NCBI GenBank assembly: GCA_026395615.1
Contig: JAPLYH010000051.1
Coordinates: 6,318 to 56,564, forward strand
Source of the DNA: Candidatus Parcubacteria bacterium
GTDB lineage: Bacteria; Patescibacteriota; Minisyncoccia; Minisyncoccales; PEYH01
Reading direction: 5' to 3'
Length of the DNA stretch: 50,247 bases
This document shows positions 818 to 36,913 of the stretch, piece after piece. The notes below the pieces were generated by a model that saw only the letters and a list, made by a program, of their open reading frames with translations, ran no database searches and was not told the origin of the DNA. The stretch's first letter is position 1. Every line of letters starts with the position of its first letter. The translations under genes were made by a program, and so were the position numbers.

Positions 818-2041
818 TTACTCGTACCTTAATGCTTCTATTGGATTAAGTGATGCTGCGCGCTTGGCGGGATAATATCCAAAAACAATTCCAATCGCTG
901 CGGAAACTCCAAATGCCAATATTATTGAAAATAAAGAAAGACTCGTTGAAACGCCTGCAAATTGTTTAATAAAAAATGAAATAAACCACCCTAGAAAAAT
1001 ACCTAAAAAGCCTCCGAAAAAAGTAAGAACTATTGACTCTGCCAAAAACTGCCTGCTTATATCTTTCCTTTTTGCGCCAATTGCTTTACGGAGTCCGATT
1101 TCACGAGTGCGCTCAGTGACTGTCGTAAGCATCATATTCATAATCCCAATACCACCAACTATGAGAGAGATACCGGCAATAGAAGCAAGTAAAATAGTCA
1201 TTGTATTCATCACCGTAGATGCGGTTTGCACAATATCCTGCTGGTTCAAAATTTGAAAATCTGCGAGTTGAGAATTTGATATATTATGCTTTTGTAATAA
1301 CAAATCAGTTATCTGTTGCTGAACCGTTGACATACTATTTTTATCTGCTGCCTCAACACTGATAGTTGTTAAATAATCATCCCCCGCAAGAAATCGTTGA
1401 GCTGTTGAAAGAGGAACAAATACAATATCATCTTGACTGCCAAATCCTGTGCCACCTTTAGACGTCGTAACTCCTATTACTTTAAAATCAACCTTATTAA
1501 TACGTATCGTCTGGCCAATAGGATTTACTCCCTCGCCAAAAAGATCATCTCTGACAGTTGGGCCAAGGACTACTACTTTTGATAAACTACGAACATTCTG
1601 CTCAGAGATAAAAGAACCAGTATCTATTTGAACATTCCTCACTTGAAGGTAATCTGCCACAGTCCCGACTACCTGCGTATTTGTATTATTTCCTTTAGCA
1701 GTTATCTGATACCTTCTAGATGTTTCTGGGGCAACGGCCTTAATGAGAGAGATATTCTGTTGAATCCCTTCCGCATCTGCTTGAGTTAATGTCTGGGCGG
1801 AACCACGACCAGCACTTACCTGAATACCAGTTCCTCGCTGAGCGCCAGGCATAATCAATATCAAATTAGATCCAATAGATTCAATACTTGATTCTATTGA
1901 GTTTTGAGCACCCTGTCCTATAGAAATCATTGCAATAACAGAGCCAATTCCTATGACTATGCCTAAAATCGTAAGTCCTGATCTGGCTTTATTAACGCTT
2001 ATCGCTGCAAAAGTTTCCTGTAAAATATCTTTTACATTCAT
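818..2041 (-). CDS. ABC transporter permease, MacB/FtsX family
   Basis: 407 aa with an N-terminal TM, a large extracytoplasmic domain and a C-terminal FtsX-type TM bundle ending ...YYPAKRAASLNPIEALRYE. It lies directly downstream of the ATPase gene. Confidence 0.85.
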   Translation of the reverse strand: MNVKDILQETFAAISVNKARSGLTILGIVIGIGSVIAMISIGQGAQNSIESSIESIGSNLILIMPGAQRGTGIQVSAGRGSAQTLTQADAEGIQQNISLIKAVAPETSRRYQITAKGNNTNTQVVGTVADYLQVRNVQIDTGSFISEQNVRSLSKVVVLGPTVRDDLFGEGVNPIGQTIRINKVDFKVIGVTTSKGGTGFGSQDDIVFVPLSTAQRFLAGDDYLTTISVEAADKNSMSTVQQQITDLLLQKHNISNSQLADFQILNQQDIVQTASTVMNTMTILLASIAGISLIVGGIGIMNMMLTTVTERTREIGLRKAIGAKRKDISRQFLAESIVLTFFGGFLGIFLGWFISFFIKQFAGVSTSLSLFSIILAFGVSAAIGIVFGYYPAKRAASLNPIEALRYE

Positions 2042-33839: not shown

Positions 33840-34838
33840 CTATTTTAAATATCTTTGGATAGCGAGGTTGTGCTCTTTTAGAGTTCTGCTGAAAACCGTT
33901 TCTCCATCGGGCTTTGATAAAAAATAAAGATAACCAGTTTCTTTGGGGTGAATAGCGGCATTAATAGCTGAAATTCCCGGATTAGAAATGGGGCCTGCTG
34001 GCAAGCCAGCGTATTTATAGGTATTATATGGAGAATTTACTTGAGTATCATTTATAGTATAACGCCATTTATCAATGCCCAAAGCATAAGCAACGGTCGC
34101 ACAAGATTGTAAAGGAATATGACTTTCCAAGCGCCTCCAAAAAATTCCAGACACGATTTGGCGATCCTGCTCGGTGGCCACCTCTTTTTCTATTATTGAG
34201 GCCATTGTAACTATTTCAAAAATCATTTTTTCTTGAGAATATATTTCCTCTCTCATTTCTGGAGTAACTTTGTTATTAAAATTGTTTAACATCATTCTTA
34301 CGAACTCATTAACATCTGTTTTATCAGTAATCCAATAAGTATCCGGAAACAGATATCCCTCAAGATTGTTTTTCTCCGGTTTATCAATCAGAAAATCAAA
34401 TTCTTTAACAATTTCTTTAGAGGGAACGATTGCTTGTAAAAAACTTTCTTTTGAAAAAATTCCTTTTTCATCTAAATATTTGGCAATATCATTAATATTC
34501 CATCCTTCAATTATAGTAATTTTTATTCCCTTGATATCTCCTTTAATAATTTTATTAGCTATTTCGCTAATACTCATTGATGAAGATATACTATATTCCC
34601 CTGTTTTTAATTTATATTGCCCACCACTAATAAAAACATAAAAAGAAAAAGCGGTTTTGCTTTTAATCAGTCCCTCTTGTTTTAATTGAGAAGCAATAAC
34701 AGAAAGACCGCTCCCCCTTTCTATTGTAAAAATCTTTTCTGAGGTTCCCGAATTAAGGGGAATGTATAATTGGTAATATGCCCAACCTCCCAGAATCAAT
34801 ATTACAGCAACAACAAATATTAAAAATTTTTTAGACAT
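33840..34838 (-). CDS. mltG: endolytic murein transglycosylase MltG (YceG family)
   Basis: N-terminal TM, ...LEGYLFPDTY... and ...ASIIEKE... catalytic region, ...NTYKYAGLPAGPISNPG.... Confidence 0.9.
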   Translation of the reverse strand: MSKKFLIFVVAVILILGGWAYYQLYIPLNSGTSEKIFTIERGSGLSVIASQLKQEGLIKSKTAFSFYVFISGGQYKLKTGEYSISSSMSISEIANKIIKGDIKGIKITIIEGWNINDIAKYLDEKGIFSKESFLQAIVPSKEIVKEFDFLIDKPEKNNLEGYLFPDTYWITDKTDVNEFVRMMLNNFNNKVTPEMREEIYSQEKMIFEIVTMASIIEKEVATEQDRQIVSGIFWRRLESHIPLQSCATVAYALGIDKWRYTINDTQVNSPYNTYKYAGLPAGPISNPGISAINAAIHPKETGYLYFLSKPDGETVFSRTLKEHNLAIQRYLK

Positions 34839-35454
34839 TTTTATTTTTTACTAATGGAACGAAAACAAATCCAGGGTATTCTTGTTTTTCAAAATTATCT
34901 TCTGATTTTTTGGTAAAAACACAAATTGAATTATGTATAGGGATAACTATTTTTCCTCCAATTTTAAGCTGATTTTTCAAAGCAGAAGGAACGCTATCTG
35001 TCCCTGCTGAACAAAGAATGGCATCATAAAGAGCTTCCTCTAAATAACCATCTCTGCCATCACTACAAACAAACTTAAGTATACCATTTTTTATAAAATC
35101 ATAATTGCTTGCATTCTTTTGTCCGAACTCTTTAAGTTCAGGGATTATTTCAATTCCAATTACTTTTCCCTTATCACCGACAATACTGGCAAGAAGAGTA
35201 CTTGTCCACCCAGAACCCGAACCAATATCAAGAATTTTATCTCCTGGTTTTGGCTCTAATTTTTCTAACATAAACGCTACTACTAACGGTTGAGAAATTG
35301 TTTGTCCAAAGCCTATTGACAGAGCTTCATTTATTTCTGATAAATTCTTTATATCTTCTGGAATAAAATCCTCTCGCTTTATTTCTTTAAACGCTTTTAT
35401 TATCCTATCAGTTTTAAGCCATCCTTGTTCAATTAATTCGTTTATTAAAGTCAT
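34831..35454 (-). CDS. pcm: protein-L-isoaspartate O-methyltransferase
   Basis: GQTISQPLVVAFMLE, SAM site ILDIGSGSGWTSTLLA and DAILCSAG. Confidence 0.85.
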   Translation of the reverse strand: MTLINELIEQGWLKTDRIIKAFKEIKREDFIPEDIKNLSEINEALSIGFGQTISQPLVVAFMLEKLEPKPGDKILDIGSGSGWTSTLLASIVGDKGKVIGIEIIPELKEFGQKNASNYDFIKNGILKFVCSDGRDGYLEEALYDAILCSAGTDSVPSALKNQLKIGGKIVIPIHNSICVFTKKSEDNFEKQEYPGFVFVPLVKNKNV

Positions 35455-35500
35455 ATATAAAGCGAGGATATTTTATTTTAAGATGCATCACGCAGGCCGA

Positions 35501-35676
35501 GCGGGCATGGTTCCCCGCGACAAAGAGGAAGAGCGAGGCAATAAGGTTTCAGGGCAGCTCCCGCAGGTCTGTTTGGCATGGTCCCCGAGCGAAGCGAGGG
35601 GCAAACAGACCGAGGGACGCAGGCTGACAAATCTCGCTGGAGATTTGGACAGCCAGTGACCTGAAATCTTATTGCC
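35501..35676 (-). ncRNA. candidate structured RNA (island E), unassigned; strand uncertain
   Basis: A 17-bp closing helix (35537-35553/35660-35676) encloses a long hairpin (35566-35575/35602-35611 with a cccc/gggg apex) and a second hairpin (35623-35653, 8-bp stem with a 4-nt loop). A further stem lies at 35501-35518. There is no RBS-preceded ORF. Confidence 0.35.
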
Positions 35677-35683
35677 GAGCGGC

Positions 35684-36913
35684 TTACTCATAACCCCTCA
35701 ACGCATCTGTTGGTCTCAACTTCGCAGCTTTGCGGGCAGGTAAATATCCTGAAAGACAACCGATTAAAAACGAGAAAAATAATCCAAATATTATCAAAGA
35801 GGCGGGCATATACGCTTCCAGTAAGAAACTTCCGCTTGCTCGGCTATAACCTTCTATAAGCTTGGCAACGATTAAGCCAAAGATTACTCCACCAGCTCCG
35901 CCAATCAAACCTAAAATCCCTGATTCTATAAGAAAAATTGAAATAACAGCGCTATTCTTAGCTCCTACTGCCTTCAAAACACCAATTTCTTTTGTCCTTT
36001 CGCGAACAGAAGTAAACATTGTATTCATAATTCCAAGACCGCCGACTAAAATTGATATACTTGCAAAAAGCATTACGGCTGCTTGAATTACTCCAACAAT
36101 TCCGCCAGCTATATTGCCCATCTTTTCTGATGTAAGAACTGAAAAATCAGAAACATTTTCTCCTCTTTTTCTCTTTCTTACTTCATCCAATGCCTTTTTA
36201 ATTTTAGCTGCTAATTCATCCGGAGAAACTCCTTCTTTTGCTTTCACCATAATCATTAAAGCACTCCCATCTCTCTCCCCTGTCACCTGTTGATAAACAG
36301 GCCTGTCTAAATAAACAGATGTATCATCGCTTTTACTCCCAATAGAGTTCAATATTCCCACCACTCTGAAAGTTCTGCCATTAATAGTGGCCGCATCTCC
36401 TACTCTGATTCTTCTCCCAAAAAAATCTTTCTGCGCTACCAAGCTGCCGAGCAATATTTCTCTTTTTCCTGGAGATGGCCAAGTTCCTTCGGATAAACTC
36501 CATCCCTGAAAAGTGCTCAAAAAATCCTTACCCTCGTCCCAGGGAAAACTTACTAAAAAAATTACTTTTTGCTCATTATTATAACGCATTAGCTGTGATT
36601 TTTGAGAAGTCGGCAACACCACATCAACTCCTTCTACTTTTTTAATCGTCAAGATATCTTCTTCACTCAACATTTGTCCGCCCATAAATGTGGCTATAGG
36701 ATTATCTATTGCTCCAGGCATAACAAGAATAACGTCTCCTCCTAAAGAATTTAATTGTTTAAGAATAGAATTCTTGATTCCACCACTCAAGGAAATAAGA
36801 GTAATAACCAAAAAGATGCCAACTACTATACCAAAAATAGTTAGCCAACTTCTCAGTTTTCTGTTTCTAAGATTTTTAATAGCAAGTTTAAAATATTCTT
36901 TTATTATTGCCAT
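35684..36913 (-). CDS. ABC transporter permease, MacB/FtsX family (second copy)
   Basis: 409 aa with the same architecture as 818-2041. It ends ...GYLPARKAAKLRPTDALRGYE. Confidence 0.85.
   Translation of the reverse strand: MAIIKEYFKLAIKNLRNRKLRSWLTIFGIVVGIFLVITLISLSGGIKNSILKQLNSLGGDVILVMPGAIDNPIATFMGGQMLSEEDILTIKKVEGVDVVLPTSQKSQLMRYNNEQKVIFLVSFPWDEGKDFLSTFQGWSLSEGTWPSPGKREILLGSLVAQKDFFGRRIRVGDAATINGRTFRVVGILNSIGSKSDDTSVYLDRPVYQQVTGERDGSALMIMVKAKEGVSPDELAAKIKKALDEVRKRKRGENVSDFSVLTSEKMGNIAGGIVGVIQAAVMLFASISILVGGLGIMNTMFTSVRERTKEIGVLKAVGAKNSAVISIFLIESGILGLIGGAGGVIFGLIVAKLIEGYSRASGSFLLEAYMPASLIIFGLFFSFLIGCLSGYLPARKAAKLRPTDALRGYE

Follow-up and report, generated by a model that had tools for sequence, protein, structure and literature searches.

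A previously undescribed ~150-nucleotide three-way-junction element dispersed through Patescibacteria operons, possibly a propagating structured repeat

The 50,247-nucleotide (nt) stretch of a Candidatus Parcubacteria genome analyzed here (the window) carries, in the spacer between a MacB/FtsX permease gene and pcm, one copy of a previously undescribed structured element of ~150 nt. The element forms a family that is found mainly in one class of the Patescibacteria (Parcubacteria). Its members take on a branched fold that is retained through compensatory mutations, and they are placed almost uniformly antisense to neighboring genes. Judging from the sequences, the family combines long persistence under structural constraint with ongoing gain, loss, and recombination, because divergent copies that still fold are seen together with scars, swaps, and a burst of near-identical units. 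We tentatively read the element as a propagating, non-autonomous structured repeat, either selfish or semi-domesticated. This reading may well be right, though it falls short of being probable; by analogy, the lifestyle of the element would resemble that of repetitive extragenic palindromic (REP) sequences, enterobacterial repetitive intergenic consensus (ERIC) sequences, and miniature inverted-repeat transposable elements (MITEs).

The initial annotation had described the spacer as a GC-rich RNA candidate with a three-way junction, and this junction proved to be real, conserved, and noncoding, as seen from its homologs, their compensatory changes, and the lack of a conserved reading frame. 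The spacer comprises 229 nt (35455–35683) and is bordered by the stop codon of the permease gene at 35684 (35684–36913, − strand) and by the start of pcm at 35454 (34831–35454, − strand), which encodes a protein-L-isoaspartate methyltransferase. The high GC content was rightly noted, with 0.58 in 35500–35699 compared to 0.25–0.37 in the flanking genes and ~30% around. The minimum free energy is −100.3 kcal/mol (z −6.3) for the + strand and −88.9 kcal/mol (z −5.9) for the − strand, and neither value is matched by any of 200 dinucleotide shuffles. The helices that had been drawn by eye are all present: the 17-bp closing helix 35537–35553/35660–35676 with a single G·U pair (G35546·U35667), the helix 35566–35575/35602–35611 with its CCCC..GGGG cap at 35583–35601, and the hairpin 35623–35653 with the loop CGCUGG. 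The motif reported from both flanks, GCCGAGCGG, is indeed found at 35496–35504 and at 35674–35682. The absence of a U-tract terminator also held, as neither a hairpin-plus-U terminator nor a sigma-70-like promoter (consensus scan) was found on either strand of 35250–35900. A 67-codon open reading frame with an ATG start (35488–35691, − strand) crosses the element and overlaps the stop codon of the permease gene; this frame is not kept in other copies.

The consensus fold is based on an alignment of 20 copies from 13 genomes (A1), from which the covariance model R1 was built. RNAalifold predicts 41 pairs for A1, of which 28 show compensatory double changes. In 45 copies aligned with the model, standard pairs occupy 97.6% of the pair cells, compared to 79% in shuffled alignments and 25–48% with slid partners. 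Double changes on both sides are seen in 37 of the 41 pairs, and none of 500 shuffles reached any of the covariation measures. The closing helix, P1, is rich in compensatory changes, with double changes in 14 of its 15 model pairs and covariation that includes the two outermost pairs; in P5 double changes affect ten of twelve pairs. Mutual information across 98 copies places all top signals in nested helices, and the pairs added in this way lengthen P2, P3, and P4. A pseudoknot between the P5 loop and the junction was rejected, as the covarying positions belong to a nested extension of P2 and no long-range non-nested signal was found in the 98 copies.

The consensus starts with P1, a closing helix of ~18 bp that is prolonged through a symmetric GCGAGG/CCGAGC motif (tandem G·A) to two more pairs. 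The three-way junction is tight, with zero, one, and two unpaired nucleotides between the helices. Arm 1 is built from P2, a CG(N)AG/CGAG internal loop, P3, a conserved 7-nt GCAYGGU bulge, and P4. The length of P4 varies among copies, and the helix often holds another tandem G·A and a 3-nt tip such as GAA. Arm 2 consists of P5, which is closed by a nearly invariant CGCUGG loop that is kept across the order and the class. Many copies are additionally enclosed by an outer AU-rich helix, P0, whose arms differ between lineages and remain complementary. The arms of P0 and P1 are inverted repeats that covary between lineages rather than representing one fixed sequence. An apparent shared promoter (..TTTTAAAATGCATCC) turned out to be the 5′ arm of P0. 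A subtype, type B, follows the same plan in a shorter form, with P0, a CCGAGCG-GGCAUGG-hairpin-AGCGAGG arm, and an arm with a CUCGCUGG loop; the longer form is designated type A. No conserved reading frame runs through the element, as no frame is open in more than 38 of 98 copies, which also speaks against a small protein or a type I toxin encoded opposite the element. A kink-turn RNA bound by L7Ae was rejected as well: the tandem G·A sites are symmetric or have a 1-nt bulge, and L7Ae (PF01248) exceeds its cut-off in none of 151 genomes of the order.

The family is multi-copy and widely dispersed. Three further related copies lie in the genome of the window (contigs C19, C50, and C10), whose assembly comprises 587 kb at 36% GC and is 98.9% complete. 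BLAST of the spacer gives matches in 23 of 61 relatives, with up to 14 in one genome (G005). Many of the G005 matches are located at contig ends, as is typical of repeats at which assemblies break. Independent matches are obtained with the 5′ 70 nt and with the 3′ 150 nt of the spacer. Full-length R1 matches confirm the conservation across order and class: they are found in 52 of 151 genomes of the order sample (one to eight copies each, up to 160 bits) and in 48 of 151 genomes of the class sample (25–95 bits outside the order). In the phylum sample, seven of 151 genomes are positive; these include the genome of the window (G000) and one genome of the same order, and the other five score 36–68 bits. 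By R1, positive genomes hold one to nine copies and account for about one third of the genomes sampled from the order and the class. One locus, L098 (G030, contig C3), holds two inverted copies ~250 nt apart, at 1106–1248 (−) and 1501–1643 (+).

No known RNA family is matched. Rfam 15 returns only tRNAs and an L10 leader for the whole window at the gathering threshold, only noise of at most 17 bits for 35380–35780 at E ≤ 10, with no match to the HEARO model, and only a tRNA for 12 diverse family members at E ≤ 0.5. Carriage by phages was probed in IMG/VR with two degenerate patterns, which gave at least 117 matches (first scan, 80 of these stretches scored) and 23 matches (second scan); judged by the model, the 103 scored loci include no true copy. 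In a full-text literature search, no report of such an element came up for Parcubacteria or for other bacteria of the candidate phyla radiation.

Selection for folding acts on the + strand of the window, which is antisense to the permease gene and pcm, as four features of the sequence indicate. First, G·U pairs exceed A·C mismatches on this strand, with ratios of 63:20 (45 copies) and 112:37 (98 copies). Second, it is the more stable strand in 95 of 98 copies (mean advantage 7.8 kcal/mol) and in 92 of 98 copies under DNA parameters. Third, it is rich in purines, and its GC skew (+0.14) runs opposite to that of the flanking coding DNA. Finally, the conserved tandem G·A motifs would read U·C/C·U on the complementary (mRNA) strand.

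The genomic context was counted for 98 copies of the order sample, with the folded strand taken as + throughout. In 90 of 97 copies the 3′ neighbor is a convergent gene, with a median gap of 2.5 nt between element and stop codon, and 55 of these 90 gaps fall within −15 to +10 nt. Spacers between co-directional genes hold 74 antisense and four sense copies, whereas convergent spacers hold 11 copies and divergent spacers three. The neighboring start codon is often just 5–25 nt from the 5′ end of the element. Copies sit in the pheS–pheT, secD–secF, dnaK–dnaJ, rpsG–fusA, and galT–tpiA spacers and after rplW, rpsI, serS, and lepA; these neighbors are core genes that share no common theme. In G055, a single contig with dnaA at 304 kb, the folded strand is the lagging-strand sequence in all six copies, and the neighbors of the two copies examined run with replication. 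In the 50–80 nt on the 5′ side of element copies, runs of TACGAAT or ACGAATT (gene strand ATTCGTA) are seen between the element and the next start codon in several genomes (loci L004, L066, L079, L069, and L061); they possibly represent the other short repeat family of this window (AATTACG...CGTAATT).

The initial annotation had offered two roles, a cis element of the permease–pcm operon or an independent small RNA. An independent small RNA is possible. The operon-specific role is not borne out, because the family is multi-copy, dispersed between unrelated housekeeping genes, and nearly always antisense to its neighbors. In genomes of the same genus, moreover, the same spacer is empty or scarred, and the selected fold is antisense to the operon mRNA. 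A riboswitch or another 5′ leader was rejected on the ratio of 74 antisense to four sense copies and on the unrelated neighboring genes.

Turnover is evident when orthologous spacers are compared. The permease–pcm spacer measures only 23–62 nt in G001, G003, and G004 and holds remnants or a partial shell of the element. In G001 (33 nt) GAGCGG alone is kept, beside the stop codon, and in G003 (23 nt) AAGCGAGG alone is kept, beside the start codon. In G004, GCGAGG-CAATAA.. is joined to the P0 3′ arm and CCGAGCGG, and the P0 5′ arm is gone; at the same locus in G013 a P0 arm is retained. The dnaK–dnaJ spacer of one genus gives a similar picture. It holds a type A core in G018 and G023, a type B interior with both P0 arms in G025 (DnaJ 93% identical), and a GA-motif scar in the 62-nt spacer of G010; the G018 copy has a single arm of a shell similar to that of G025. 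The element is dispensable at any one spacer. G005 carries at least eight near-identical units of ~170 nt with unrelated flanks, which look like a recent burst. Chimeric or nested copies are found on contigs C50 and C10 of G000, at locus L012, and in the window.

Further rearrangements were seen near these loci. In G002 (L092, C27) the pcm match is split into two pieces (residues 1–98 and 95–204), and the permease–pcm spacer is filled by short tandem repeats of the AAAATCC/AAAACCC type instead of the element. In G003 (L089, C24) pcm is preceded by a tRNA-like sequence and then by the last ~20 codons of the permease gene, an order that indicates a rearrangement that would have left a C-terminal remnant of the permease. 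In G000, two contig ends (C19:1–459 and C50:1–505) represent the same locus beside serS, with flanks that are 97% and 89% identical. The interior is a complete type A element in C19 and a type A/B hybrid in C50. This pair reflects either a strain polymorphism or a paralogous locus and probably broke the assembly.

The window copy itself is a chimera of three pieces. It combines the 5′ arm of P0 with a type B arm that has decayed and a type A core that is intact, and the pieces are joined at the common GCGAGG motif; all parts are given for the + strand. The type A core is complete: its three-way junction spans 153 nt (35531–35683), matches R1 over its full length (1–151) with 160.4 bits (E 2.7e-40) and abuts the permease stop codon. 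The 5′ strand of P1 (35533–35556, P1 proper 35539–35556) pairs with 35657–35680, and its outward extension consists of G37 and G38, the tandem G·A (G35, A36), and G33 and C34 (last two digits of the positions). Arm 1 (35557–35621) runs through P2 (35557–58 and 35560–62 with 35614–16 and 35619–20), the CG(N)AG/CGAG internal loop, P3 (35566–75/35602–11), the conserved GCAUGGU loop (35576–82), and P4 (35583–86/35598–601, with a tandem G·A and a GAA triloop) and ends with the junction nucleotide A35621. Arm 2 (P5, 35622–35654) carries the near-invariant CGCUGG loop at 35635–35640. The 3′ strand of P1 and the adjoining CCGAGCGG occupy 35657–35683 and end 1 nt before the reverse complement of the permease stop codon (35684–35686).

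The degenerate arm 1 of type B (35496–35539) was recognized by alignment with intact type B copies. Its CCGAGCG (35497–35503) lies opposite AGCGAGG (35532–35538) via tandem G·A, and it contains the GGCAUGG loop (35504–35510) and a decayed hairpin. BLAST of 35470–35539 shows that this module is dispersed on its own, for example with 84% identity at three loci of G005. The “separate” stem that had been proposed at 35501–35518 is predicted for the single sequence, but homology with the type B copies does not support it as a conserved pairing; it is a single-sequence prediction only, since 35496–35539 is the decayed type B arm. The remnant P0 5′ arm (35462–35495) comprises GCGAGG, an AT-rich arm, and then ..GCAG, and belongs to the outer AU-rich helix. 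The corresponding 3′ arm is missing from the window copy, and the same 5′ arm is paired with an inverted 3′ arm in complete copies of G005, G013, G000 (C50 and C10), and genus g7.

From the dispersal, scars, and chimeras we infer that the element is mobile. As a propagating structured repeat, it would spread and recombine among intergenic spacers, and the + strand fold would be what the propagating or maintaining machinery recognizes, more likely as RNA than as single-stranded DNA. In streamlined genomes only insertions just after a stop codon may survive. Antisense copies would be almost the sole survivors if the active strand were harmful in the mRNA of an essential operon; alternatively, the orientation bias may stem from integration that is coupled to the direction of replication.

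Several observations weigh against propagation. The loops are conserved class-wide, although a transposase that recognizes terminal inverted repeats would not need them, and no target-site duplication is visible at eight near-identical copies of G005 and G013. No mobilizing enzyme adjoins the element in five high-copy genomes among the families searched, TnpB, IS110, reverse transcriptase, and Y1 (other transposase families were not searched). Orientation is more mixed in 11 distant copies of the class sample. Copies within one genome are often old (41–75% identity) and still fold. Syntenic copies from different genera or families mostly differ by double compensatory changes; one such pair shows 17 kept double changes, one single change, and no broken pair. 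These differences suggest that selection acts on each copy, as on a functional RNA, and not on a few master copies. The nearest relative lies in another genome for 45 of 70 copies.

A family of functional noncoding RNAs, expressed from the + strand antisense to the operons and selected by the host copy by copy, is accordingly to be considered, and we regard it as possible but on balance unlikely. Such RNAs could bind a protein, be catalytic, or regulate in cis as antisense transcripts. The very strong covariation, the class-wide GCAYGGU and CGCUGG loops, the tandem G·A motifs, the purine-rich + strand, the divergent paralogs that still fold, and the compensatory differences between syntenic copies with few broken pairs all fit this explanation. 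Conversely, the element is lost or scarred at orthologous loci of close relatives, it is patchy (about one third of genomes, with copy numbers from one to 14), and its neighbors share no functional theme; an L7Ae-type partner was not found in the order. Neither a conserved promoter nor a terminator was found, and a start codon often lies within 5–25 nt of the 5′ end. A positional scan for −10 hexamers in 97 copies gave only a weak rise beside the element, with 13 −10-like hexamers in the last 5-nt bin directly upstream compared to ~5 elsewhere, a modest enrichment that would favor transcription of the + strand.

Transcript data from the environment do not cover the locus. In four metatranscriptomes from the same lake samples, contig depth is zero over the five-gene stretch from yceG, downstream of the spacer, to the ABC ATPase gene, which lies upstream together with an HlyD-type gene. 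The only signal there comes from a conserved ABC motif that belongs to other organisms. With zero depth over the whole neighborhood, the organism cannot be detected in these metatranscriptomes, and no public RNA run was shown to contain the stretch.

A variant of the RNA explanations holds that the element is an active RNA specific to Parcubacteria, either a self-cleaving or otherwise cis-active ribozyme or the RNA part of an unrecognized mobile or defense system. We consider it doubtful. The GCAYGGU and CGCUGG loops would then be functional sites, and sense copies would be nearly absent since the active strand would damage any mRNA that contains it. Guide RNAs of known systems were rejected: TnpB is found in none of the five high-copy genomes, IS110 is found in two of the five with the element absent from those loci, and the HEARO model is unmatched, which leaves neither a TnpB/IscB omega-RNA nor an IS110 bridge RNA. 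A reverse transcriptase is encoded in two of the five genomes.

The + strand might also fold as single-stranded DNA and serve as a site for a Y1 (HUH) transposase or a structure-specific recombinase, analogous to REP/REPIN-RAYT systems, IS200/IS605 ends, and the bottom strands of integron attC sites; this we judge unlikely. The lack of a target-site duplication fits such a site, as do the attC-like placement (immediately behind stop codons, with folding on the strand opposite the open reading frame), the advantage of the + strand under DNA energy parameters (92 of 98), and the orientation tied to replication direction in G055. Most P4 tips consist of a 3-nt loop, for example GAA within GCGAAGC, with C-G as the closing pair, and such loops are exceptionally stable in DNA. 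Y1 genes are present in all five high-copy genomes and in 78 of 151 genomes of the order, and they are somewhat enriched in element-positive genomes (34 of 52, compared to 44 of 99 element-negative genomes; odds ratio ~2.4). However, 18 of the 52 element-positive genomes, some with four to seven copies, have no Y1 match, and neither the element nor its motifs adjoin the Y1 genes: R1 found no match in four Y1 loci with filters off, and 23 Y1 loci showed no motif enrichment. In the IS608 paradigm the recognized strand lies on the lagging-strand template, whereas the G055 copies would place the folded strand on the leading-strand template. The copies are spread among housekeeping operons instead of cassette arrays, and no DNA recognition site is known to us that takes the form of a 150-nt three-way junction with conserved loops. 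Separately, Y1_Tnp is strongly expanded in G116, G157, and G158 (22, 18, and 15 matches in genomes of 0.6–0.8 Mb), mostly in open frames of ~225–320 amino acids that are longer than a typical IS200 TnpA.

A cis element of the sense mRNA, in which a hairpin after the stop codon guards the upstream cistron against 3′ exonucleases or provides an RNase III site, as REP or ERIC sequences do in the operons of enterobacteria, is distinctly less plausible. The element lies nearly always inside co-directional gene pairs and starts ~2 nt after the stop codon, so its complementary version is presumably co-transcribed with the flanking genes. This − strand version also folds strongly, and RNase III is, as expected, encoded in all five genomes checked. 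Yet the version on the mRNA strand folds less stably than the + strand in 95 of 98 copies, its A·C mismatches exceed G·U pairs 3:1, and its tandem G·A motifs become U·C/C·U. A pure stability or processing hairpin, furthermore, needs no conserved three-way junction, conserved loops, or single orientation, and close relatives do without the element at the same spacers. A palindrome without function, in which template-switching during replication (quasi-palindrome correction) and not selection maintains the complementarity of the arms, would account for covarying pairs that are all nested inverted repeats and for elements that recombine into chimeras, but it is very improbable, as it leaves the class-wide unpaired loops, the G·A motifs, the 3:1 G·U bias, and the 95% orientation bias unexplained.

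The genomes of the candidate phyla radiation are tiny and have little spare DNA, and yet about a third of the sampled genomes of the class hold this 150-nt element, with a fold that is kept by compensatory mutation more cleanly than that of many curated RNA families. If selfish, it would represent a new and unusually elaborate bacterial interspersed repeat that persists in core operons (pheST, secDF, dnaKJ, rpsG-fusA). Because assemblies break at it, it would then be useful for tracing recombination and differences between strains in uncultured lineages. If functional, it would be a sizeable uncharacterized class of noncoding RNA, and its antisense placement would reflect a distinctive orientation-dependent selection. 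In either case, the covariance model would stop such GC-rich islands from being found again as “orphan” RNAs or miscalled as small open reading frames.

Among known systems, REP/BIME and REPIN-RAYT elements come close: they are GC-rich, extragenic, multi-copy palindromes in operon spacers and at 3′ gene ends, without target-site duplication, and the presence of Y1 transposase genes in all five high-copy genomes checked adds to the likeness. REP units, however, are simple hairpins of 20–40 nt, whereas the element is a three-way junction of 140–170 nt with conserved loops. In addition, the Y1 genes here are unflanked by the element, their co-occurrence with it is weak, and its orientation relative to genes is 95% uniform. 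ERIC/IRU, Correia (NEMIS), RUP, BOX, and the Rickettsia RPE share a length of 100–170 nt and a long imperfect dyad symmetry. All of these repeats likewise occupy transcribed intergenic sites of operons in a patchy, multi-copy manner, and their function cannot be assigned from context. The element differs from them in its branched fold and class-deep covariation, has no sequence or Rfam relationship to them, and folds strand-specifically antisense to transcripts; neither a target-site duplication nor a parent insertion sequence was found.

Integron attC sites, such as the VCRs of Vibrio, resemble the element in their location immediately 3′ of open reading frames with the folding strand opposite (90 of 97 copies, median gap 2.5 nt) and in a structure that is better conserved than the sequence of its helices. 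With GCAAC...GUUGC, the end of the closing helix of the element recalls the AAC/GTT cores of attC. The ends GGCAAC/GTTGCC, though, match only the AAC/GTT part of RYYYAAC/GTTRRRY, the internal loops of the element are conserved in sequence, and its copies sit in housekeeping operons and are not arrayed by an integrase (intI itself was not searched).

In the mitochondria of yeast and Volvox, GC clusters and palindromic repeats are GC-rich, foldable sequences in the spacers of small AT-rich genomes and are regarded as selfish (PMC2670323). In contrast to the element, the mitochondrial clusters are short and lineage-specific and lack a conserved multi-helix architecture or conserved loops. The Sib/QUAD RNAs of E. 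coli are similar in that several highly structured, antisense-encoded copies of ~140 nt occur per genome; the element, by comparison, lies inside housekeeping operons and has no conserved opposite small open reading frame, promoter, or terminator. The element, which is unrelated in sequence and by model to REP, ERIC, MITE, and attC-like repeats, is set apart from them by its branched, loop-conserved fold, the depth of its conservation, its strand-specific folding, and its orientation rule.

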